Below the pieces are notes generated by a model. That model searched no databases. It worked only from the letters and a program-made list of their open reading frames with translations, and was not told the origin of the DNA. DNA of 64,000 bases from Escherichia phage ALITA: the sequence record PP359570, one strand, 5' to 3'. Of this stretch, positions 2 to 46,531 are shown one piece after another. The position numbers and the translations under genes are program-made. Position 1 is the first letter of the stretch, and each line of letters opens with the position of its first letter.

Positions 2-1726
2 GCCACCCAGTTGAAAGATACAGATGGAGCAGAGTTAATAGGACATAGAAACGCTACGGTTGGCACTACTCTGGATTCAATTGCAGTCCGCTCAGATCAA
101 TTTTCTACTATTCAGGAATGGGCATCATACCCAGCAAAGCACAAAACTTTAGCAGGCGGAACATATACTCTGGACTCTACTCTCAGTGTTGAATGTGAAT
201 CACTGACCACTGAGGGTGTAGTTACTATAAATGCTTCTGGTTCATTCATCGCTATGTATTTTGGTACAAATCAGCGAGATTTACTAACCACTCTTAGCTC
301 TGATATTTCAAAAGGGATAACCAGTCTTACTGTCGATAATGTTCAGGAAGGAGATACTTTATGCTTTTATAATCCTTCTGATTTTTCATGGTCTGGATAC
401 CGGAATTATTATCGTAGTGGAGAGTTTGTTAAGGTTGTTAGATATTCAAATGGGATTGCACACTTCAATGGAGGGACGAAAGCCGCATACCCATCTGGGA
501 CTCAAGTTTACAAGCTAAAAACAAAAAAAGTTTCTGTAAGCGGGGCTTTTGTATTTAATTTTCCTTCATACGACAAAACTGCTATGGCTATGCAATTCGA
601 GCAGATAGCTGATGGTAACTTTGACAATCTCGTTGTCACATCTCACACCGCCCCTTATGCCGTTCAGTTTAAACGTTGTTTCAATCTTACCGGTAAGGGG
701 ATGCGTCTCACACAGGAATCTCCTTCTGTAAGTTTTGGCTTAGAATATGGTTGCTACATCTGCAATAGCCAGAATATTGATTTTGAAGGTATATTCTGTG
801 CAGAGCGCCATGCAGTCACTGTTACAGGTAATGATGAAATCTGCGGTATTGTTAACAGATTTGTCAGTGTTAACGCCAGCGGTGGCGGTGCAATCATGAC
901 CACAGGGCAAGGCAAGGTTGCAGCAGCAGACTGGCACGGAAACACTGAAAAGTGCAGGTATGGTGGATATATTCAAGGGCTTGCTTGTGGTGGGTCTAAA
1001 AATAGCGCACGTGGTGCTCATATCGACCACGTACCTAACACCCCGGCATGGCCTAACATACTCGCTACGGAACTTAAGTCAATTGAGTTTGATTTAAGCA
1101 ATATCCATGTTACAGGGATAGGTGATCCATCTTCAGTAAACAGAGGTTGTATTGATTTTGGAGGTAACTCCACTGCATTTGGAGCTAATACTGTAGAACC
1201 TGGCACTTTGAATCTTTCTGGGGCTGTTATTGATTCTCCCGCAAACGTGTTGATTGAGATAAGGAACAGGGGTTCATTGGCTGCTCACACCATAAATCTT
1301 AATGGAGTTACCGCTAATGCAGAGAGCGGTAAGTACACGGTCAGGATTGCGCCAATTGGAGAAGGTATTTCCCCTTCAGATGTTTACATGGCAGGATTTA
1401 AGATGCCTGACGGCAGTATCTCACAGATAAATAACCTGTCATCAGTGAACGTACACGGGGTGTCCAAAAAAGGTAGATCTTCTATAACCATACCAAGTGG
1501 GGCCAGTTCTGCGGAGTTAACCATCCCTTTCGATTCCACTGTACTTGGTGCTCCGAAATCAGTTCAGTTTAATCGGTCAGGGCTTGTTCCAGCGGCACAA
1601 GCAAGGATTGTATTCTCTGAACGAACTTCGTCACCAACAGGGTTTCGGGTTATCGCGGCAACAGCTAACGGTAATACGCTCTCAGCAGACCTTACTATAC
1701 CGTTCTCATGGCGTGCAGATTGGTAA
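2..1726 (+). CDS. Tail fibre/tailspike-like structural protein; frame is open to window edge, so probably 5'-truncated (ORF track start at 11 is TTG without SD)
   Basis: Long ORF at head of structural block; G/S/T-rich beta-rich composition typical of fibre proteins; no SD upstream of position 11. Confidence 0.55.
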   Translation, partial: ATQLKDTDGAELIGHRNATVGTTLDSIAVRSDQFSTIQEWASYPAKHKTLAGGTYTLDSTLSVECESLTTEGVVTINASGSFIAMYFGTNQRDLLTTLSSDISKGITSLTVDNVQEGDTLCFYNPSDFSWSGYRNYYRSGEFVKVVRYSNGIAHFNGGTKAAYPSGTQVYKLKTKKVSVSGAFVFNFPSYDKTAMAMQFEQIADGNFDNLVVTSHTAPYAVQFKRCFNLTGKGMRLTQESPSVSFGLEYGCYICNSQNIDFEGIFCAERHAVTVTGNDEICGIVNRFVSVNASGGGAIMTTGQGKVAAADWHGNTEKCRYGGYIQGLACGGSKNSARGAHIDHVPNTPAWPNILATELKSIEFDLSNIHVTGIGDPSSVNRGCIDFGGNSTAFGANTVEPGTLNLSGAVIDSPANVLIEIRNRGSLAAHTINLNGVTANAESGKYTVRIAPIGEGISPSDVYMAGFKMPDGSISQINNLSSVNVHGVSKKGRSSITIPSGASSAELTIPFDSTVLGAPKSVQFNRSGLVPAAQARIVFSERTSSPTGFRVIAATANGNTLSADLTIPFSWRADW

Positions 1727-1827
1727 ATATTTATACTAAAAACTAAGACCCCAAACTATGCCTTTATTTATACATATAAAGTTTATTGTTTGTACTACCC
1801 CCATAGGATAGTGGGTGTTATGTCTAG

Positions 1828-2019
1828 ATGTCTTTCAACATACTAAGTATTATCTATGATAAGGAGACGCAAAGGGCGTATTCCCTACCTGCTGATATTG
1901 CCCCAGGTATTACTGCCATTAGTCTTAGTGCTGCTGTACTTGTGCATTCAGCGGGTTCTGTAGACCTTGGGGAATTAGCTGTATATCGTGATTTAAAAAG
2001 TAATGAGAACGCACCATGA
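1828..2019 (+). CDS. Hypothetical small protein
   Basis: 63-aa ORF, no clear SD. Confidence 0.3.
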   Translation: MSFNILSIIYDKETQRAYSLPADIAPGITAISLSAAVLVHSAGSVDLGELAVYRDLKSNENAP

Positions 2020-2261
2020 GAAAATTTTTAATAGGTATGTTTTGTACATATCCTGATAATAAAGTCAGTTCTACTAAAGTTTGGAATGCTATTGGTATGA
2101 TTGTTATGTCCAGTATGTTTATTTATTTGGGAATTGACAAAGAAATTCCTGAATGGATGGGCTGGGCTTTTGTTTTTATGATCACACCATCCAGACTAAT
2201 GAAGAATTTAATAGATTTACGTTGGGGCAGATCACCTGCCCCTGATAAGGAGGATAACTAA
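2016..2261 (+). CDS. Small hydrophobic (membrane) protein
   Basis: 81-aa ORF with two hydrophobic segments; stop overlaps next start. Confidence 0.4.
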   Translation: MRKFLIGMFCTYPDNKVSSTKVWNAIGMIVMSSMFIYLGIDKEIPEWMGWAFVFMITPSRLMKNLIDLRWGRSPAPDKEDN

Positions 2262-3748
2262 TGGCAGATTATGGTTTAACAGATGCTGGTTTTGTCATTC
2301 CAACGTTTGATGATATTCTAAATAATTATATGACAGCATTGAAAAACACTTTCGGTGCAGATACAGCTACATCTGAAGATACAGTCTTTGGTCAACTGTT
2401 TCGTATTATTGCATATACAGATTACACCCTTTGGGAAGGTATGCAAGGTGTTTACAATACCCAAACCTTAGATGGTGCAGAAGGTATTTACCTTGATGAA
2501 ATCTTCTCTAAAAGAGGTTTTTATCGTAAAGCTGCTTCTGCTGGTAGTGGTTATGCTTATGTTAAATCTAACAATAAGGCAGCTTGGACTTATGAACTAA
2601 GCACAGATGTTTATTTTAATGCCGATAACGATTTGACATATTATGTCAGTGCACCAACAATGTTGAATGCTAAGATTGGAGCATATACCATTTCTAAAGC
2701 AAACGCAACAGCTTCTGGTGAAACTTCTATTACTTTCTACATTCAAAGTGCTATTGATGGTGGTCTTAACAGTAAAACACTAAGTCCTAGCAATACAAAC
2801 TTTATTGTAGATCTCACGAATTTCATTAAAGCTAACGTATCAACAACAGATCGTGCTTTAGTATGGAATGATGCTGGTAATGTTTATATGGGTTATAATC
2901 CAGAAGATAATGTTAACCCAATAGGTCTAGTAACACCCGTGAAATTTTATGCATCTATTGCCATTGGTACAAAATGGAGTGAAATTCCAGTTACGTGTTC
3001 AGACGTTGGTTATAATCCAGTAGGTACAGAAAGTATTACAGGTATTTCTTCAACGTTTACAGGCTTTTTAGATACAGGTAACTTCTATCCGTTCTCTCCA
3101 GGTACAGATGTTGAAACAGATGCAGAATTCCGTTCTCGTTTCAATGATAATATGGATGAAGCTAATGCTGCTACTCGTGCTGCTATTGTTAAAGCTCTAT
3201 TACTGACAGATGGTGTGACAAAGGTTAAGATTTACGATAACCCTACACTACACGATCAGGAACATGCTCCAGCTATGACATTCCAGACTATTGTGTATGG
3301 TGGTACAGCAGAAGAAGTTGCACAGGTTATTTATAATACTAAGCCTATTAACACATTAACTTATGGTACGACAGCAATTACTATCGTAACAGAAGATGGT
3401 GGTCAAGAAGTAATTCGTTTTTCTCCTGGTGATAATGCGGAATACTCACTTAAACTGGTATATCAAACTGGTAATGGTAGTGTGTTAAGTACAACAGAAA
3501 GAGAAAATATTGTTTCTGCTCTTGCAAACTTACAGGCTTATTTTGAATTAGGGTCAACAGTAACTAACGATCAGATAAAAGGTGTAATTTATTCTGCACT
3601 TGCGTTCGGACGCTTGACTTCTCTCCGTGTTTATGTTAAACTTAATACTGAGGATGACAGTAAATATAATGAGGGAGATATCACTCCAGCGTACAATGTT
3701 GTACCATCCTTTGACCTTGATAATATTTCCTACGAGTACGGAGTCTAA
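2261..3748 (+). CDS. Baseplate (J-like) structural protein
   Basis: 495-aa ORF with strong SD (AAGGAGG); position upstream of small baseplate-like protein and fibre genes as in P2/Mu-type baseplate modules. Confidence 0.5.
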   Translation: MADYGLTDAGFVIPTFDDILNNYMTALKNTFGADTATSEDTVFGQLFRIIAYTDYTLWEGMQGVYNTQTLDGAEGIYLDEIFSKRGFYRKAASAGSGYAYVKSNNKAAWTYELSTDVYFNADNDLTYYVSAPTMLNAKIGAYTISKANATASGETSITFYIQSAIDGGLNSKTLSPSNTNFIVDLTNFIKANVSTTDRALVWNDAGNVYMGYNPEDNVNPIGLVTPVKFYASIAIGTKWSEIPVTCSDVGYNPVGTESITGISSTFTGFLDTGNFYPFSPGTDVETDAEFRSRFNDNMDEANAATRAAIVKALLLTDGVTKVKIYDNPTLHDQEHAPAMTFQTIVYGGTAEEVAQVIYNTKPINTLTYGTTAITIVTEDGGQEVIRFSPGDNAEYSLKLVYQTGNGSVLSTTERENIVSALANLQAYFELGSTVTNDQIKGVIYSALAFGRLTSLRVYVKLNTEDDSKYNEGDITPAYNVVPSFDLDNISYEYGV

Positions 3749-3750
3749 AA

Positions 3751-4380
3751 ATGGCAGTGAGTGTTGACCATGTGACAACGTGGGATAGTATCAATGAAGA
3801 TGTTAAAGACCTACTGATTGAAGATTTTAAATCTTCTCCGAACATTGTCAAACTACTCTATATCATTTCTAGCGAAAAACAAAAGATAGATCAGGCAATG
3901 ATCTATCTTGCCAAACACCGCTTAATCTCTACTGCAACTGGTAAGTATTTAGATCTTATTGGTGAAGAGATGGGGATGGAAAGAAATGGTGCTACAGATG
4001 AAGAGTATCGTACAATATTAAAAATCAGGGCTTATCGTGTTGCGTCTTCTGGTACGCGAGATGATATCATTGATATGTTCGCTCGTTTTACAGGAACAGA
4101 AAAAGAAACGATTAATACATACGTTGGATTAAATAAAACATTCGACGTATTCTTTTATAATTTGTGTCTACAATCCGATCAGGCAGTAGCACAGTTACTT
4201 AACGTTTTCCCGATCCTAAGTAGTTATCGCTTAGGTGCGAAAGCGGGTGCAGCCTTTGGTTTCACTTCCTATTATGCCACAACTCCACCTCATGGTATAG
4301 GTGGTTTAGGTTCTCTTTACACAGAGGCTGAAGGAGATGATACAGGGCGAATGACTATGCTGATAGCTCAAATAGAATAA
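3751..4380 (+). CDS. Baseplate/tail-fibre-associated protein
   Basis: 209-aa ORF tightly coupled to upstream gene. Confidence 0.45.
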   Translation: MAVSVDHVTTWDSINEDVKDLLIEDFKSSPNIVKLLYIISSEKQKIDQAMIYLAKHRLISTATGKYLDLIGEEMGMERNGATDEEYRTILKIRAYRVASSGTRDDIIDMFARFTGTEKETINTYVGLNKTFDVFFYNLCLQSDQAVAQLLNVFPILSSYRLGAKAGAAFGFTSYYATTPPHGIGGLGSLYTEAEGDDTGRMTMLIAQIE

Positions 4381-4393
4381 GGAGTTACTCTTA

Positions 4394-5377
4394 ATGGCAA
4401 AGCCACAATACTACCCTGACTGGGCGACACAAACAGTAACCCTCCCAGGAACGGGAAACACAAACAAGATTAGACCAAAAGAAACCATCCGTAATGTTGG
4501 TATGGACTTTGGTCAGATTATGACTTGTGAAGAAATGAACTGGATCTTAAACAATATTGGGTCTTGGATTCGCTATATGCAAGATGAATTCTTCCCAACA
4601 TTGCCTACTACATATCTTCCTATAGTCGGTACTAAAATTACAATGGCAGGTGATGCTACAGGTGAAGTTACATGGAATGGTAATGCTGCTGTAACATTAT
4701 CTATTCAAGTCGTAGATAACAGCCATAATCACTTATCAGCTAACATTACAGACGCAACATCAAACCAAGTTGTAGGGAATGTCCTTGTTAAGCGTGATAA
4801 TGGTGGTGCTATCTATGCAGGCGATATTTATACCTGTGGTACAGGTGCTACAGATCCTGCAACATTATTTTTTAGAAACTACAACGGACAAACAGTAGGT
4901 AATATGTCCTCTGAACCAGGTGCAGGTGGTCAACTCTATATTTATAGAATGAACCCATCAACTGGAGGAACATCTTGTGCAGTCCGTTTATATGATGCAG
5001 GTTATGTTTTAATAGACAACCCTCGTTCTAATTCTGGTCAAGATACTGGTAATGGTAATGCTCTTGTAAGATTAGACTATCTTAACTCCAGACTAAACTC
5101 ATTGCAAAGCACACTGCAAAATAATATTAACAACGTTAATAGTAACTTGCAAGGCCAAATTAATAGCATTAACAATAGAGTTTCTTCTGTTGTGTCTGCT
5201 ATCCGTCTTGGAACACGTATCCAAGCTGGTGTGTCTGAGTCTCGTTTCTATGCTGGTCACGTGATCACAGGTTGGGGTTTTGGTGACAAGAAAGAACTTC
5301 GTGGTGCTTGGTATTGGTCAGCCCCGCTACAATATTATATTAATGGTAGCTGGATAACAGTAACCAACGTTTCGTAA
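4394..5377 (+). CDS. Tail fibre protein with C-terminal coiled-coil/N-rich repeat
   Basis: 327-aa ORF, SD AAGGAG; N/Q/S-rich heptad-like segment LNSRLNSLQSTLQNNINNVNSNLQGQINSINN. Confidence 0.55.
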   Translation: MAKPQYYPDWATQTVTLPGTGNTNKIRPKETIRNVGMDFGQIMTCEEMNWILNNIGSWIRYMQDEFFPTLPTTYLPIVGTKITMAGDATGEVTWNGNAAVTLSIQVVDNSHNHLSANITDATSNQVVGNVLVKRDNGGAIYAGDIYTCGTGATDPATLFFRNYNGQTVGNMSSEPGAGGQLYIYRMNPSTGGTSCAVRLYDAGYVLIDNPRSNSGQDTGNGNALVRLDYLNSRLNSLQSTLQNNINNVNSNLQGQINSINNRVSSVVSAIRLGTRIQAGVSESRFYAGHVITGWGFGDKKELRGAWYWSAPLQYYINGSWITVTNVS

Positions 5378-5386
5378 GGAGAGTCT

Positions 5387-5938
5387 ATGAAAAAAGACAT
5401 TATTTTTACAGGTTTTGAATTGTATGAACCAGAATTAACAGAAGAAAATATTCTTTATCTTTCTGTTGGTGGTGGTTTTTTGCAAGACAAAGATGGTAAC
5501 GACTGGTATCAGCTTCAAAAAACTTTGATGGTAGAATATCCCGACGCTTATTTTATTACCTTAGATGATAATAATATTGTACGTGGTGCTACTAAAGATG
5601 TTACTACCTATTTCCCTGCCGGACAATCTATTTTAGTTACATATAATGTACCAGATAAAATAGAAGATGAAAGTAATATTGGCTCTTGGCAATATGTTGA
5701 AGGTAAGTTTGTTCCTCACAATAATCTTGCTATTGAAGATGCTACTCTTAGGTTAGAAAAGGAGCTAACTTGGGCTACGAATCAAGTATCTGCGATTCAA
5801 GATTTAGAGGAATTACAAGGTTTATCTGAAGAACAAAAAGATTGGTTAGGAAAAGTTAAACTCTATCGTGCAACATTAATTCAAATTAACGTTGAAGATG
5901 CACCTAATATAACTTGGCCTACAAGACCTAAGAAATAG
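5387..5938 (+). CDS. Hypothetical structural/fibre-assembly protein
   Basis: 183-aa ORF with SD AAGGAG, in fibre cluster. Confidence 0.45.
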   Translation: MKKDIIFTGFELYEPELTEENILYLSVGGGFLQDKDGNDWYQLQKTLMVEYPDAYFITLDDNNIVRGATKDVTTYFPAGQSILVTYNVPDKIEDESNIGSWQYVEGKFVPHNNLAIEDATLRLEKELTWATNQVSAIQDLEELQGLSEEQKDWLGKVKLYRATLIQINVEDAPNITWPTRPKK

Positions 5939-5947
5939 GGGCAATGT

Positions 5948-6289
5948 ATGGAGCTAACAGAAGTATGGGATATCGCTAAAGAGGCGATTATCCCTCTTAT
6001 TGGCGTAATCTGGGTGGTCTTCAAACAGAAGATAGATGATATGGCAAGTGATTTGGATAAAATGGAAGACAAATACCGCGAACTAGAAAAGAAGTTGGTG
6101 TTTGTTGAATCCACTTATGCTACCAAAGCAGAACTTGCTCAAATGCTTAACCAGATCAACTCTACATTAATGGCAAATAATACTGCCTTAGAACAGAAGA
6201 TTGAAAAAATAATGGATTTAAAAAATGCTCCTGTTCAATTAATGCTAGAGGAGATTACAAAGCGCACACAAAGTAAGGACAAAAATTAA
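5948..6289 (+). CDS. Small membrane-anchored coiled-coil protein
   Basis: 113 aa; N-terminal hydrophobic helix then charged coiled-coil; stop overlaps next ATG. Confidence 0.45.
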   Translation: MELTEVWDIAKEAIIPLIGVIWVVFKQKIDDMASDLDKMEDKYRELEKKLVFVESTYATKAELAQMLNQINSTLMANNTALEQKIEKIMDLKNAPVQLMLEEITKRTQSKDKN

Positions 6290-8703
6290 TGGCGAATTTT
6301 CCAACATATCCTGCTACGACACTAGAACAAGGTGTTGATCTGGTTATATTCTCGTCTAACCAGATGCATGATGTTATTAATGGGGATGCTACAGCAACTG
6401 TAGAAACCGAAACAGGTTTAATACCTACACTGCGTAAAGCACTTGTTGATAACTTCTTCTTTAAGAGTCCTGTTGCTTGGTCAGCAGGATCAACTGAAAC
6501 TGTATTTAACCAGTTACGTTATTTTGAAAACGGTATCTTGAGTGGGTACTATTATGCCCCATCTGCCACTACTGCGAACCCTGTACCTATGCAGGGCACA
6601 CCTGTAGGGGACAGTAACTGGACTCTGTACGCTCTTAAAACTGAACAGTTAGCTTCAGATGTGTATCCTTGGTATTTTAAAGGTGCTACAGGATATGAAA
6701 CAGAAATCAGTCCTCCTTATATCTTTGATAATGCTATTGTCACCATTAACGGTGTAATTCAGATTCAAGGTGAAGCATTTACTATCAAAGATAGTAAAAT
6801 TATTCTGGCAGAACCATTAGGTTTAGATCCGTCTACTGGTCTACCTAACAAATTGTTTGCTTTTATTGGTAAAACAACAGCCTCTACTTCTTACGTAGAG
6901 AAAAACCTTTTGTCATCTACCACTGGTGCAGCAATGGTTGGTCTTCCATCTGGAGGCAACCTGTTACAAGCTCAATACTTTGTAACGCCTGAGCAGTTTG
7001 GTGCAATTGGTGATGGAGTTACCGATGATACTCAAGCAATTTTAAAAACTATTACTTTCGCTAACACGAATAACATTCAAGTACGTGCAGATAAGAATTA
7101 TAGATTCACAAGCTCAATTGCTATGTCTGGTATTCGTTGGTATGGTGGTACATTCACTGGTAACGGTGGAACAATGATTTCTACTGTGTCCTGTTGGATG
7201 GAAAACGTTCGCTTTGAAAAATGTTATGTTAAGATGTTAGGTGGTGATTGCCGATTCTATCGTAATATCTTCTCCAACGCAACATCTACAGCAGCATTCT
7301 TAATGCAAGCAATGACAAGTGAAGGTACGTTGGACTTCAGTTACAACGAAATGTATGGTTGTAAATATGCGATCCTGCAACAAGGTACTGGAGAAGTAAT
7401 GACCTACGGGCGTTACTCTAACAACTATATTCACGATATCAAAGGTGATGCTATTGAACTTAACGTAGTTCAAAAACACTACACTGAAGGTTTGATTATC
7501 GAGAATAACCACATTGCTAACGTAGATGCTTCTGGACAAGGTGCAAACTGGGGTATTGGTATTGGTGTAGCAGGTAGTGGCCCATATGGTGTTGATGTTC
7601 CTGATTCACAATATGTACGTAATTTCAGTATCGTTGGGAATAGGGTTTACAATTGCCGTCAATGTCTACACGTTGAAATGGGTAAAAACTTCACAATACG
7701 TGATAATGAAGTTTATCCTAACACAGCAGTTTCAACAGGTACAGGTTTAACTACTTGTGGTGTTGCATTATACGGATGCCAAGATTTTGAAGTTGATGGT
7801 TTAACTGGTTATCTGCTCAATGATCCGTCTGTTTCAACACGTATGGTCTTTATTGACTGGGGTGTTAACAGTGGAAGATATGCGGGGCCACCAATTAACT
7901 TTACAATTAAGAATTTGGATATTCCAGAATCTTCAATTGAGATTGCAACCTCTGGATCAGATGCTTGGGAAAACTCTACAATTGTTAGTAATATCAATTG
8001 TAATGTTTTTAAATGGCGTGGGCTACCATCTAGCTCTACTTTTAATAATATTCGTTGCCGTAGTATTGACTTTATTGGTCAACACGGAAGCGGAGAAGGA
8101 AGTGGTGGCGGTTTCTATACTCGCAGCCAATTCACGTATATGAAGTGGGTAGGATGTACAGCACTTAGCGGAGATGAAACAACAGTTTCTTTTGCTAAAA
8201 TCTACACTGATCGTTGCGATCAGGTTGGAAATAACTTTGGTGTTCCAACTGCTGTTGATGGTACAGGTCATCGTGGGCCAGTTTTAACTACTATTTCTGA
8301 ACAATATTTTACAGCTTATGATGAATTCCCAGGTGGGCGTGAATTCCCTACTGGAACAGTTATTCATTGTGCAAGCGGTAAAAAACATGTTGTTACAGTA
8401 GGTGGTGCTTTCTTTAGTGCCAACGAGAAAATAAAAGCAACTGTTACAGGTCAAACCTATCTACAGTCTAATGCTTTAAACTGGGCTAGTAATGGCTACG
8501 CTAAAGCAGCAGGTACTAAGATTGTTATTCCAGGTGCAGGTGCAAATGGCGGCGATCTTGTGACAACTATAGCACGTGCTACATATGTGACAAATAGTTT
8601 GTACACAATAGATATTGCAGATCCAATTGTAACACCTACAGCAGAGAATACACAAATTAAAGCTCTGAATCCTGTTACTTTTGTTACTGTCAACAATGCT
8701 TAA
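6289..8703 (+). CDS. Tailspike with pectate-lyase-like right-handed beta-helix (putative polysaccharide depolymerase)
   Basis: 804 aa; motif FGAIGDGVTDDTQAIL characteristic of pectate lyase superfamily tailspikes; followed by hairpin terminator. Confidence 0.8.
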   Translation: MANFPTYPATTLEQGVDLVIFSSNQMHDVINGDATATVETETGLIPTLRKALVDNFFFKSPVAWSAGSTETVFNQLRYFENGILSGYYYAPSATTANPVPMQGTPVGDSNWTLYALKTEQLASDVYPWYFKGATGYETEISPPYIFDNAIVTINGVIQIQGEAFTIKDSKIILAEPLGLDPSTGLPNKLFAFIGKTTASTSYVEKNLLSSTTGAAMVGLPSGGNLLQAQYFVTPEQFGAIGDGVTDDTQAILKTITFANTNNIQVRADKNYRFTSSIAMSGIRWYGGTFTGNGGTMISTVSCWMENVRFEKCYVKMLGGDCRFYRNIFSNATSTAAFLMQAMTSEGTLDFSYNEMYGCKYAILQQGTGEVMTYGRYSNNYIHDIKGDAIELNVVQKHYTEGLIIENNHIANVDASGQGANWGIGIGVAGSGPYGVDVPDSQYVRNFSIVGNRVYNCRQCLHVEMGKNFTIRDNEVYPNTAVSTGTGLTTCGVALYGCQDFEVDGLTGYLLNDPSVSTRMVFIDWGVNSGRYAGPPINFTIKNLDIPESSIEIATSGSDAWENSTIVSNINCNVFKWRGLPSSSTFNNIRCRSIDFIGQHGSGEGSGGGFYTRSQFTYMKWVGCTALSGDETTVSFAKIYTDRCDQVGNNFGVPTAVDGTGHRGPVLTTISEQYFTAYDEFPGGREFPTGTVIHCASGKKHVVTVGGAFFSANEKIKATVTGQTYLQSNALNWASNGYAKAAGTKIVIPGAGANGGDLVTTIARATYVTNSLYTIDIADPIVTPTAENTQIKALNPVTFVTVNNA

Positions 8704-42754: not shown

Positions 42755-45529
42755 TTAGTTTACCAGTTTATTTATATCTGGTAAAAGATTTATTTCACCT
42801 AAGAAATCACCTTCACCTTCCTCTAGCCAACTCTCATATGCTTGTGCATGATTATAGTTACCATCAAAAGAATCTGCAACAAATTTTTCTACAGTTTTTC
42901 GAGATGTGCCAGCACCAAATACACCAAGTTTAATACCATTGATCGGTAAAGTGGTGCTTGTGGGTACTTTCTCTGTTGCAACACGGTTGATATCTATAAT
43001 CTCCTGTACGGTTGTGTTCCATTGTAAGCATTTAACACAACGGGTATGCGCTACATACAGTAGGTTTCGCTCTGCCTCTTCCAGTCCTACCCATTCACCA
43101 GTCTTTTTATCATAGTTGGAAGGAAAATCATTAGCAACAATAACCTGATCCCACTCCAAACCTTTAGACTTGTGTGCTGTAGTCAGTGTGACTTTTGCTG
43201 TAGGAGAATTTCTATGCGTTCTAAGTGTATGTGCTATAGTGTTTGCCTTACCAGAAACTACGATGTTTAACAAGCGTTTAGCATCTGGATCAGCCTCTGC
43301 ACACTCAACAAATTCATCCCAGTCTGCGTAAGGTAATACAGTTTCATGTTTTACTTTCTCAATATCTCCTCTCCGAAGAGCATTAACACTATCTACCATA
43401 GAGATAAAATCCCTGGTATCTACGTTAATAATAATTTCTTCCCCATCTGCAATACGATCCATTGCCTCCATAAGCAAGGTTAAATTCTTGCGAAAGATGA
43501 TAGTGTAAGGTTTTGTATAGTCTACAACATCTGATTTGTAGCTACCTACTACAGTATCAAAGCCTTTACCAACCAAAGGATGACGCAAAGGTTCTTTATC
43601 GCTTAAAATCATATTGGCAATGTTTGCCACTTTGGGGCCAAAACGGAAGCAAGCAGTTAATGGAAGTTCTGCCCCATACTTAGCTGTTTCAATCATCATA
43701 TTAGAGCTACCTCTAAATTGATAAATGCAGTTGTGGCTAAGAATTTCATTGCCAAAGAAGTTAGCAGTATCCTCTACTTCAATATCATAATAGATACCCT
43801 CACTATCTACAATGTCCACAATCTCTTCTGCCGTTACAGTATCACCATCTTTTACCAACACAGACATGCCTTTAAACAAACCCGCTGCCGGAATTAAGTT
43901 ATATTTGGCACTGTTCACAGAGGACATGCATTCTTTTAAAGATGCAAACGGAACTATTTCAAGGATCTTTTGTGCAAAACTCAATGCTTCACGATAAGAA
44001 TTGAAATATTTACGTACACGGTAACGACCTTCCAATTTAGCAGCACTTACGCTTACACCTGCTTTAATCAGTGAAGAATAGATCGGCATTTCACTTTCTG
44101 TCCACTCAAAACTAACTTGTGTTCCTTTACAACCTTGTGCTCGCAAAGTCACTGTTAGCATTTTTCTTTCATCTACTGCACAATTGATGCTGTGCCAGTG
44201 TGGATAAGCAAAATGATAATCTTTATCCTCTAAAAGTTTAAAACCATTTTGTCCGAATTGTTCAAAGATGTTATTGATCCTTTCTTGATTAATGCCGCGT
44301 GAACTTGCTTCAAATACACAAGTAGGAATGCCATATTGTAAACTGTAAGCCATTTCTTTTTCCATAGCAGCTTCACGGTTTTCAACAATATCCAACACCC
44401 ATAATTTCTGTGCTTTTTCAGAACGTGTACGTTGCCCCAGTTTAGAAAAACCTTCTTTATCATCGAATTTGTTAGTGATCCCTACTCGGAAACCTAAATC
44501 TTTCCTCCACATTAGGTATACCACCATCTGATCATCTTTCAGAACATAGGATGAAGCCCAAATACGATGGTTATGTGTCATATCTAAAGTTTTACCTGTG
44601 GCAGTAATAATATTCCTACCTTTTGTACGTGTAGATAAAGTCTTATTTGTTACTTTTCTAAATGTAACTTTACCATTAGAATAAGACTCTACCTTATCAC
44701 CGATTTGCAGGTCTTTCATTGTAACCTGACCATTCTCGGTATTAAGTACCGTGTTTTCCGACACACATTGGAATTCATCGCCCACTACCACAATTTGTTT
44801 TGCAGATTTAGCATTTCGCAGAATAGACAAGAATGCAGGGTTAACATCCTGGAATTCATCACCAAAAATAATATCATAACCAAGATCAGCACCAGACAAT
44901 TCAAACAATTTTACATAGGTGTCATGCGTCATTAAAGTATCTGTGTTAGGATCGATGCGCTCTCGCCACAATTGTTTTGCATACTTAACTACTTCTGTAA
45001 TTAGTTTGTGTTCGTTAATACCTTTTCTTTTAATATCTGCAAGATGTACACTAGGAAAATGTTTACGGCTGATAAAAGGATCATCCGAAAATTCAAACTT
45101 ACCTACGGTTTGCTTGATCATTAAACCGATCATAGCACGAGTTAAAAGTGTTTTACCTCGTTTATCAATAAGATTATTAATCTTAAATTTCTTTGCTATC
45201 TCACTACCTGTACCTGCAACGTTAACATACTGTCCTTCTGGTCGTGACAGTTTTGCACGTAAACGATGATCCAGGAATTGATAGCAAATAGAATGCAATG
45301 TACGGCATTCTACATTTAGTGGCATCTTACGTCGTGCTTCTTCTGCCATGCTTTTATTGAAAGCTAAGTAAAGAATGCGATCTTCTGTACTGTTAGCCAG
45401 CAAATAAAGTGTTGACGTTTTGCCTGATCCAGATTTAGCTTGGATAGTTAAAAAGCGATGGTCTGGAAAAGCCTCCTTAATAGCTGTTTGCTCTTCTGTT
45501 GGAGTGAAGCTCAACTCTTTCTTAGCCAT
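42755..45529 (-). CDS. UvrD/Rep-family SF1 helicase interrupted by an intein
   Basis: Walker A AKSGSGKTS; motif II IFGDEFQDVN; motif III split as VVVGDEFQ | intein | CIYQFRGS; start set at ATG with SD (MAKKELS). Confidence 0.85.
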   Translation of the reverse strand: MAKKELSFTPTEEQTAIKEAFPDHRFLTIQAKSGSGKTSTLYLLANSTEDRILYLAFNKSMAEEARRKMPLNVECRTLHSICYQFLDHRLRAKLSRPEGQYVNVAGTGSEIAKKFKINNLIDKRGKTLLTRAMIGLMIKQTVGKFEFSDDPFISRKHFPSVHLADIKRKGINEHKLITEVVKYAKQLWRERIDPNTDTLMTHDTYVKLFELSGADLGYDIIFGDEFQDVNPAFLSILRNAKSAKQIVVVGDEFQCVSENTVLNTENGQVTMKDLQIGDKVESYSNGKVTFRKVTNKTLSTRTKGRNIITATGKTLDMTHNHRIWASSYVLKDDQMVVYLMWRKDLGFRVGITNKFDDKEGFSKLGQRTRSEKAQKLWVLDIVENREAAMEKEMAYSLQYGIPTCVFEASSRGINQERINNIFEQFGQNGFKLLEDKDYHFAYPHWHSINCAVDERKMLTVTLRAQGCKGTQVSFEWTESEMPIYSSLIKAGVSVSAAKLEGRYRVRKYFNSYREALSFAQKILEIVPFASLKECMSSVNSAKYNLIPAAGLFKGMSVLVKDGDTVTAEEIVDIVDSEGIYYDIEVEDTANFFGNEILSHNCIYQFRGSSNMMIETAKYGAELPLTACFRFGPKVANIANMILSDKEPLRHPLVGKGFDTVVGSYKSDVVDYTKPYTIIFRKNLTLLMEAMDRIADGEEIIINVDTRDFISMVDSVNALRRGDIEKVKHETVLPYADWDEFVECAEADPDAKRLLNIVVSGKANTIAHTLRTHRNSPTAKVTLTTAHKSKGLEWDQVIVANDFPSNYDKKTGEWVGLEEAERNLLYVAHTRCVKCLQWNTTVQEIIDINRVATEKVPTSTTLPINGIKLGVFGAGTSRKTVEKFVADSFDGNYNHAQAYESWLEEGEGDFLGEINLLPDINKLVN
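43730..44767 (-). mobile_element. Intein (~346 aa) inserted in helicase motif III, with a central putative homing-endonuclease region
   Basis: N-terminal Cys (CVSENTVL), block B TxxH (LDMTHNH), C-terminal ...FFGNEILSHN followed by extein Cys. Confidence 0.7.
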
Positions 45530-45530
45530 T

Positions 45531-46007
45531 TCAACCTCTCTTAATTTGTTTAACAAGCATAGGAACAAAGTCTCGTTTTAAAATTTGTTCAATAATATGA
45601 TCAGGTAGCTGTTGGAAATTATAATTAAAAGCTACTGTCTCACCTTTAGGCGTTTCTACCCGCACATATAACATGTTACGAAGTTTATCAACTTGTGCTG
45701 TATATTCTAAACCATGTAATTGATGTAATGCAAACATCAAATCATCAGTTTCAGTTTGGAATCTATCCCTTCCCTGCATCAAGGACAAGGAAAAAGGTAG
45801 ATTTTCCCTAAGAGCCACCTTCTTAGGAACTAGTGAAGGAAAATACTCACCAATAACTTCCTGTGTAAGCTGGATACACTCTTTTTCAAGTTGGTTTTGT
45901 TCCTTAAGTTCACAAACACTTTTTTGTAAAGTGTTAACCTCTTTTTGCAAAGCTGCTAGTTGAGCACTTAACTTTCTTTTTTGATTACGACCAAAACGTT
46001 TAGACAT
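45531..46007 (-). CDS. Hypothetical coiled-coil protein
   Basis: 158-aa ORF. Confidence 0.5.
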   Translation of the reverse strand: MSKRFGRNQKRKLSAQLAALQKEVNTLQKSVCELKEQNQLEKECIQLTQEVIGEYFPSLVPKKVALRENLPFSLSLMQGRDRFQTETDDLMFALHQLHGLEYTAQVDKLRNMLYVRVETPKGETVAFNYNFQQLPDHIIEQILKRDFVPMLVKQIKRG

Positions 46008-46015
46008 ATTTCCCC

Positions 46016-46531
46016 CTAGTAAAACCCTTTAACAATCTGTATTAACTCGGCACAACGGTTGACCAACTTTTCCTCATACAATACACGTTGTGGCATATGT
46101 TGTATAATATACTCCATTTGCTCATGCCATGTCCACTTTTCTTTTTTGTCTGGGATAACATCACTAGCACGAGAATTATCTTTTAATGTTTGTATAATCC
46201 AATTGCTTGGAAAGTGCTCTCCACCTTTCTTAAATGGTTTATAGTGGCCTAGAGTGAATTGAGAATCCCCTGTTAGAGCACCCAATTTATTTAGATGGAT
46301 AATCAAACTACGAAACACGTAGTATTCATAGATGTTATCCACCGTATAGCAAGCATAATATTTCAAGATGCCCTTATCTCGCGGATACTTACCAACATCC
46401 AGATTACACCAGTTGACATTTTCTGGATCATAGTTGTGTTCCTTAAGCCATATTTCTCTTTCATCAAAGTCTGGGTATATTACCGCCCTGCTTACAGAGT
46501 CAACAAGTGGAGATTGAGCATCAAAAAACAT
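46016..46531 (-). CDS. Hypothetical protein
   Basis: 171-aa ORF. Confidence 0.5.
   Translation of the reverse strand: MFFDAQSPLVDSVSRAVIYPDFDEREIWLKEHNYDPENVNWCNLDVGKYPRDKGILKYYACYTVDNIYEYYVFRSLIIHLNKLGALTGDSQFTLGHYKPFKKGGEHFPSNWIIQTLKDNSRASDVIPDKKEKWTWHEQMEYIIQHMPQRVLYEEKLVNRCAELIQIVKGFY

Follow-up and report, generated by a model that had tools for sequence, protein, structure and literature searches.

The stretch of DNA considered here, called the window below, comprises 64,000 nucleotides (nt) of Escherichia phage ALITA (PP359570), a phi92-like coliphage of the genus Justusliebigvirus. It carries on its minus strand a gene for a UvrD/Rep-like helicase of superfamily 1 (SF1), whose region is 99.5% identical to that of phage Antha and 98.7% identical to that of phi92, and whose ATPase motif III is interrupted by 346 residues. 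This insert is very probably a class 1 homing intein that has its own endonuclease module and is mobile now or was so recently. An intein at this site had been proposed in a first-pass annotation of the window, and the coordinates of the gene, of the insert and of some free-standing relatives are collected in Table 1.

Table 1. Parts of the interrupted helicase gene (window coordinates) and free-standing relatives of the insert on other contigs; aa, amino acids; CDS, coding sequence.
Feature	Position	Strand	Remarks
UvrD/Rep-like SF1 helicase precursor CDS	42755..45529	-	924 aa, 104.6 kDa; same CDS limits in PaulScherrer and phi92
N-extein, aa 1-254	44768..45529	-	Walker A GSGKTST, motif II, first half of motif III
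Motif II IFGDEFQDVN	44840-44869	-	
First half of motif III, VVVGDEFQ	44768-44791	-	
Upstream co-travelling extein tract	44768..44794	-	6 fixed differences from empty alleles; I/V and F/Y changes
Intein, 346 aa, 39.3 kDa	43730..44767	-	Cys1 to His345-Asn346; residues 255-600 of the 924-aa protein
N-terminal splicing half, intein aa 1-75	44543..44767	-	Family profile aligns positions 4-75 to solved inteins
Start of insert, CVSENTVL	44744-44767	-	
Block A Cys1	44765-44767	-	Invariant in the family
Block B T64-H-N-H67 (THNH)	44567-44578	-	His67 invariant
Central module, intein aa 76-285	43913..44542	-	Presumed homing endonuclease and DNA-binding part
GIY-YIG-like subdomain, intein aa 78-190	44198..44536	-	Motifs VVYLM, GFRVGIT, R113, E117, E138-x2-YSL-x-YGIPT
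C-terminal splicing half, intein aa 286-346, blocks F and G (DIEVEDTANFFGNEILSHN)	43730..43912	-	TIGR01443; family profile aligns 284-341
End of insert, FFGNEILSHN	43730-43759	-	
His345-Asn346	43730-43735	-	C-terminal end of the intein
C-extein	42755..43729	-	Opens with the +1 Cys (codon 43727-43729); contains CIYQFRGS of motif III and UvrD_C
Second half of motif III, CIYQFRGS	43706-43729	-	
Downstream co-travelling extein tract	43679..43729	-	15 fixed differences from empty alleles, among them the change between Ser and Cys at +1
Free-standing relative	L004 5001-5798		Helicase 5864-7300, motif III GDSYQ/AIYGFR (Ala at +1)
Free-standing relative	L018 1943-2929		Helicase 425-1894, motif III GDCNQ/AIYSFR (Ala at +1)
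Free-standing relative	L021 3340-4392		Helicase 1877-3328, motif III GDNFQ/AIYLFR (Ala at +1)

Once the insert is taken out, motifs I (GSGKTST), II (DEFQD) and III (GDEFQ-CIYQFRGS) are intact and place the protein among the UvrD/Rep/PcrA-like SF1 helicases; the predicted spliced product has 578 aa and a computed mass of 65.3 kDa. The gene product scores 45.3 bits with UvrD-helicase (PF00580) and 42.0 bits with UvrD_C (PF13361), both above cut-off, and matches PHROG 1967 ('DNA helicase') at E = 1e-161 in an alignment that skips the 346-residue segment. The first-pass annotation had described motif II as IFGDEFQDVN and motif III as VVVGDEFQ, followed by some 346 residues that begin with CVSENTVL, contain a block B THNH and end with FFGNEILSHN, and then by CIYQFRGS. 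Each of these elements was located (Table 1), the insert counts exactly 346 codons in frame, and its removal does restore a canonical SF1 motif III. The insertion point lies between Gln and the next residue of the motif, GDxxQ/xIYxFRG (here and below a slash marks the site).

Relatives of the insert are numerous. A word-indexed protein search gave only 2, and an exhaustive HMMER profile search through 1.84 billion cluster representatives gave at least 1469 related ones, 181 of them at E < 1e-30. Junction residues were counted in the 85 complete embedded copies found among the best 150 relatives. Cys1 and the terminal Asn occur in 85/85, the penultimate His in 76/85, and every copy has Ser, Cys or Thr at +1 (Ser in 68/85); 80 of the 85 occupy the site GDxxQ/(S or C)IYxFRG. 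Non-conserved splice junctions, which the first-pass annotation had named as an observation that would speak against an intein, are therefore not what the family displays.

Comparison with known inteins leads to the same identification. As a single sequence, the insert passes the thresholds of Pfam Hint (29.9 against a cut-off of 29.7) and of TIGR01443 intein_Cterm (20.0 against 15.6), and its search against the PDB returned only matches with E > 0.2. A profile built from 20 family members matches the solved gp41-1 intein at 9e-14 and also the VMA, DnaB, DnaX and RecA inteins. These alignments cover residues 4-75 and 284-341 and nothing between them, and both halves form a Hint fold in the predicted structure. 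Pfam Intein_splicing matches 20/20 scanned members at E <= 1, with a best E of 8e-12. Family members are also present at other helicase sites, namely DE/CQDLN (motif II), DEAQDLNK/ and AHN/SKQIPM, and five proteins of 1800-2500 aa (P0003, P0004, P0007, P0008 and P0009) match the intein profile in 3-4 separate stretches; several related inteins thus appear to share one protein and to use several insertion sites.

The insert is absent from many close relatives of the window. At a nucleotide identity of at least 95%, the intein occurs in 36 phage records; within Justusliebigvirus about 35 records are filled and about 20 are empty. The empty records have helicases at least 95% identical to that of the window (near-identical genes, 97-99% at the nucleotide level) from which exactly 1038 nt, or 346 codons, are missing, as in Eryne, Paula, alia, KKE7M, 92CQ and EmilieFrey, and also in Phapecoctavirus. 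Empty orthologues have 578 aa, the length predicted for the spliced helicase. The uninterrupted motif reads GDEYQ/SIYQFRG in close relatives and GDEFQ/SIYQFRG in the sister genus, which is the outcome that alignment to intein-free homologues had been expected to give. Together with the junction residues, the Hint and TIGR01443 matches and the family profile, these empty alleles bear out the proposal of an intein. A fixed accessory domain of the mature helicase, or a non-splicing bacterial intein-like (BIL) domain, is by comparison extremely improbable: it accords with the original phi92 record, which mentions only a helicase with 'discontinuous domains', but close relatives and the sister genus lack precisely this segment, 346 residues inside a catalytic motif would keep that motif from forming, and the Hint fold comes with the full set of class 1 splicing residues, including the +1 nucleophile, which sets it apart from BIL domains.

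A few of these records deserve separate mention. The record OZ035770.1 (L013), named 'Justusliebigvirus alia', is filled, and the original phage alia (MN850632) is empty; in the former a premature stop at helicase codon 877, preceded by two changed residues, sits near the C-terminus of the intein-bearing helicase, possibly through an error of assembly. The label 'Campylobacter phage' is attached to four records (MG065639, MG065645, MG065656 and MG065689) that are 98.9% identical to the coliphage helicase gene including the intein; these probably reflect a wrong host label or contaminated stocks.

Comparison of six filled with six empty alleles over 1737 nt of extein revealed 21 fixed differences, all of which fall in the 27 nt that precede the insertion site and the 51 nt that follow it, that is, within 78 of the 1737 nt. 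If the differences were placed uniformly, such clustering would have a probability of about 5e-29. Filled and empty alleles also have polymorphisms in common. Since the fixed differences are confined to these flanking tracts, the intein brought along a short stretch of foreign helicase sequence, and the tracts are the signature of break repair at the insertion site.

A second footprint is found in another genus. Phapecoctavirus DIJ07P2 (L015, OZ035771.1) carries an intein 98.1% identical to that of the window at the nucleotide level. Its N-extein is of its own genus type, being 97.6% identical to that of an empty Phapecoctavirus and 73% to that of the window, whereas its C-extein is about 100% of the window (Justusliebigvirus) type over the first 240-300 nt, with the 51-nt downstream tract identical throughout, before the sequence returns to its own genus type. 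This mosaic pattern is that of a one-sided co-conversion tract left by inter-genus transfer, and gives an independent footprint. Presence is thus patchy among close relatives and the element has moved between diverged hosts, which together characterize a homing intein. More distant copies at the same site are known from the Klebsiella phages KP2025 (89.9% nucleotide identity) and KP13-16 (66%). The helicase of KP13-16 (L017, OP617741.1; CDS 1206-4802, 1202 aa) contains, in addition to the family member at motif III, a second insert further upstream with the LAGLIDADG-like motif LLRGLMDTDGS; this gene therefore probably holds two inteins of different types.

Segregating codons in filled alleles are mostly synonymous (synonymous to non-synonymous, 45:14 in the intein, 27:8 in its central module and 26:8 in the C-extein), which indicates that the whole element is under purifying selection. 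A compositional signature of recent import was also sought and rejected, the GC content of the intein being 0.371, against 0.373 and 0.386 in the exteins.

Between the two splicing halves lies a central module of about 210 residues. The first-pass annotation had noted that the insert is large enough to hold a homing endonuclease domain; the estimate of size was reasonable, but the module is of neither the LAGLIDADG nor the HNH kind, no Pfam domain of either type being detected in the intein of the window or in 19 relatives. In some actinophage inteins the endonuclease gene lies on the opposite strand or in a different frame (10.1101/2025.01.02.630785). This arrangement was considered here and rejected, as there is no open frame of at least 100 aa besides that of the intein.

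The structure predicted from a 20-sequence alignment has a mean predicted local distance difference test score (pLDDT) of 90.9, with weaker blocks at aa 101-110 and 191-200; a 3-sequence alignment gave a pLDDT of only 41.9. Foldseek searches with the whole model against the PDB and BFVD returned Hint matches only, and solved LAGLIDADG inteins align to it only through Hint, with a query-normalized TM-score (TMq) of about 0.27. In a set of viral structures, the whole architecture recurs in only two other proteins, a helicase and an adenine methyltransferase. Within the module, Y84, R94, R113, E117, W123 and E138 are invariant. Residues 78-190 are predicted to form a strand-strand-helix-strand-helix-helix succession, the order found in GIY-YIG nucleases, and Y84, R113 and E138, invariant or nearly so, fall in the elements appropriate to such an enzyme. 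Alignment by hhalign to 120 UvrC N-domains gave the expected register with a marginal P = 0.021 over 69 columns.

Other comparisons with GIY-YIG nucleases (the UvrC N-terminal domain, SLX1/HIGLE and I-TevI) bring out differences. PF01541 does not match any of the 20 members at E <= 1, and hhalign against I-TevI-like sequences (the GIY-YIG gene of L004 and two relatives) found nothing; a PDB search with the same L004 gene was uninformative. The Tyr of 'YIG' is replaced by the invariant Arg94, a loop of 17 residues precedes the conserved Arg, and no clear equivalent of the catalytic Asn was identified in the subdomain. On balance, we regard it as fairly probable that the central module includes a divergent GIY-YIG-like nuclease part. 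According to Dassa et al. (2009, PMC2677866), inteins are not known to contain domains of this kind, and a survey of 2025 does not have GIY-YIG among the endonuclease types reported inside inteins (10.1101/2025.01.02.630785). Our literature searches likewise found no description of this intein or of GIY-YIG domains inside inteins.

Several observations weigh against a homing intein with its own nuclease. Two curated models remain below their cut-offs (Pfam Intein_splicing, 33.7 against 35.8; TIGR01445, 18.2 against 24.5). Neither Pfam nor NCBIfam has a family that matches the central module in any of the 20 members, nor does the 20-member family profile match a PDB sequence there, and the target sequence itself is not the same in empty and filled alleles. 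One rival explanation retains a splicing intein, but one whose central module does not work, or no longer works, as an endonuclease, so that its spread would be due only to ordinary homologous recombination in co-infected cells or to cuts made by another phage nuclease. It draws on the absence of any match between the module and a known nuclease family, on the marginal likeness to GIY-YIG enzymes, and on the free recombination of these phages, visible in the polymorphisms that filled and empty alleles have in common. Random crossovers, however, would not produce what is seen here, tracts that start right at the insertion point and either measure just 27 and 51 nt or extend to one side only, over about 240-300 nt; repair of a break there would. 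The purifying selection on the module, with its invariant polar residues Y84, R94, R113, E117 and E138, also speaks for a working enzyme, as do free-standing copies that adjoin helicase genes in the manner of free-standing homing endonuclease genes. We consider a non-functional nuclease unlikely.

Several relatives of 265-366 aa are free-standing copies of this kind: they start with Met, and although the central module and traces of Hint are preserved, both Cys1 and the terminal Asn are missing. For three of them the encoding contigs, unrelated to one another, were consulted; each copy directly adjoins an intein-less gene for a UvrD-type helicase, upstream of it (P0002) or downstream (P0065 and P0057). 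All three neighbouring helicases have Ala at +1 (Table 1), which would make splicing of an intein at that position impossible. HO endonuclease, a free-standing derivative of PI-SceI, offers a parallel, with remnants of Hint retained and Cys1 and the terminal Asn lost. The adjacency supports a nuclease that targets helicase genes and suggests traffic between intein-borne and free-standing forms, although with three cases both are leads only. Taken together, a new type of intein endonuclease (a divergent GIY-YIG-like part with a second alpha/beta domain), a large family specialized on motif III of SF1 helicases and its repeated release as standalone genes next to helicase genes form a tentative picture, which we judge to have somewhat less than an even chance of being right in all its parts.

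For the intein of the window, the intact catalytic residues and the viability of many intein-carrying isolates point to protein splicing by the class 1 route. Translation would yield the 104.6-kDa precursor with its ATPase motif III interrupted, which, because of this interruption, should be inactive until spliced. An N-S acyl shift at Cys1, aided by Thr64 and His67 of block B, would then create a thioester open to attack by the +1 Cys; cyclization of Asn346 with the help of His345 would release the 39-kDa intein, and a final S-N shift would leave a normal peptide bond in the 65-kDa helicase. Phages with the intein form plaques, and no additional helicase copy turned up among the matches in them. 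Homing is deduced from the observed footprints, and the enzyme involved is presumably the central module. During co-infection with an empty-allele phage, the module, as free intein or within the precursor, would cut the DNA of the empty motif III, and repair from the filled allele would copy in the intein together with a stretch of flanking extein.

Retention of the intein as a switch, in which conditional splicing (through a redox-sensing disulfide between Cys1 and Cys+1, for example) would time the activity of the helicase, has been discussed in the literature for other helicase inteins (PMC6195587, PMC4760082). Such a role would fit an intein lodged in an ATPase motif, where the precursor must be inactive, and would fit this phage lineage in particular, in which both junction nucleophiles are Cys, whereas 68/85 relatives have Ser at +1. 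About a third of otherwise near-identical phages, however, live without the intein, and both its distribution and its flanking tracts fit a selfish element, so that we hold the switch to be improbable and favour the homing intein.

Some further features of the surroundings may be recorded. The mechanically called open reading frame of the helicase (42755..45568, minus strand) begins with a TTG codon that precedes the annotated ATG at 45529 by 39 nt; the extension (45531-45568) overlaps the end of the preceding gene (45531-46007), and all annotated relatives use the ATG. Two genes upstream of the helicase, positions 46016-46531 on the minus strand hold the orthologue of phi92 gp200, to which the phi92 record ascribes a fold predicted to resemble HNH endonucleases and which may represent a further nuclease gene in the vicinity of the helicase.

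The element is of an ordinary kind, an intein in a motif of a replication or repair ATPase, and its identification as such is already known, since it is annotated in the GenBank records of the sister phages PaulScherrer (MZ501100), JohannJBalmer (MZ501084) and vB_EcoM_ZYD (PQ110661) under the label 'intein-containing UvrD / Rep family helicase precursor', with an intein mat_peptide. In all three, of which the first two are BASEL phages, the gene, the insertion site and the element itself are those of the window (99.7%, 96.4% and 99.9% nucleotide identity of the intein to that of the window), with no biological difference. In the PaulScherrer record the intein is drawn one codon longer, with the +1 Cys included; the limits 43730-44767 follow the usual convention. 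The paper on the BASEL collection identified inteins in its comparative annotation (PMC8594841), and a 2024 paper still states that no inteins have been reported in coliphages (PMC11162368). Sixteen bacterial inteins in UvrD (COG0210) P-loop helicases have been listed (Novikova et al., 2016, PMC4760082); these likewise occupy functionally critical motifs, whereas the host protein here is a phage helicase. Mini-inteins such as gp41-1, Npu DnaB and Mtu RecA are without a central module, in contrast to the roughly 210 residues that separate the splicing halves here. PI-SceI, the yeast VMA1 intein, has the same two-part layout of Hint and nuclease, but its nuclease is of the LAGLIDADG type and it aligns to our model only through Hint (TMq 0.25-0.29). 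What may be new is the type of endonuclease, the footprint of inter-genus transfer and the existence of free-standing derivatives.

The finding is of practical value for annotation, as most records of the genus, including that of the type phage phi92, miss the intein: the helicase is entered there as 'discontinuous' or as a plain helicase, and most other Justusliebigvirus records give 'DNA helicase' or 'hypothetical protein' and nothing more. With the BASEL phages, both filled and empty, and the transfer into Phapecoctavirus, a clean natural system is at hand in which intein homing and co-conversion could be measured in a tractable coliphage. Finally, the endonuclease module lies outside the two usual classes found in inteins, and the relatives that stand alone hint at a path by which inteins and free-standing homing genes may be connected.

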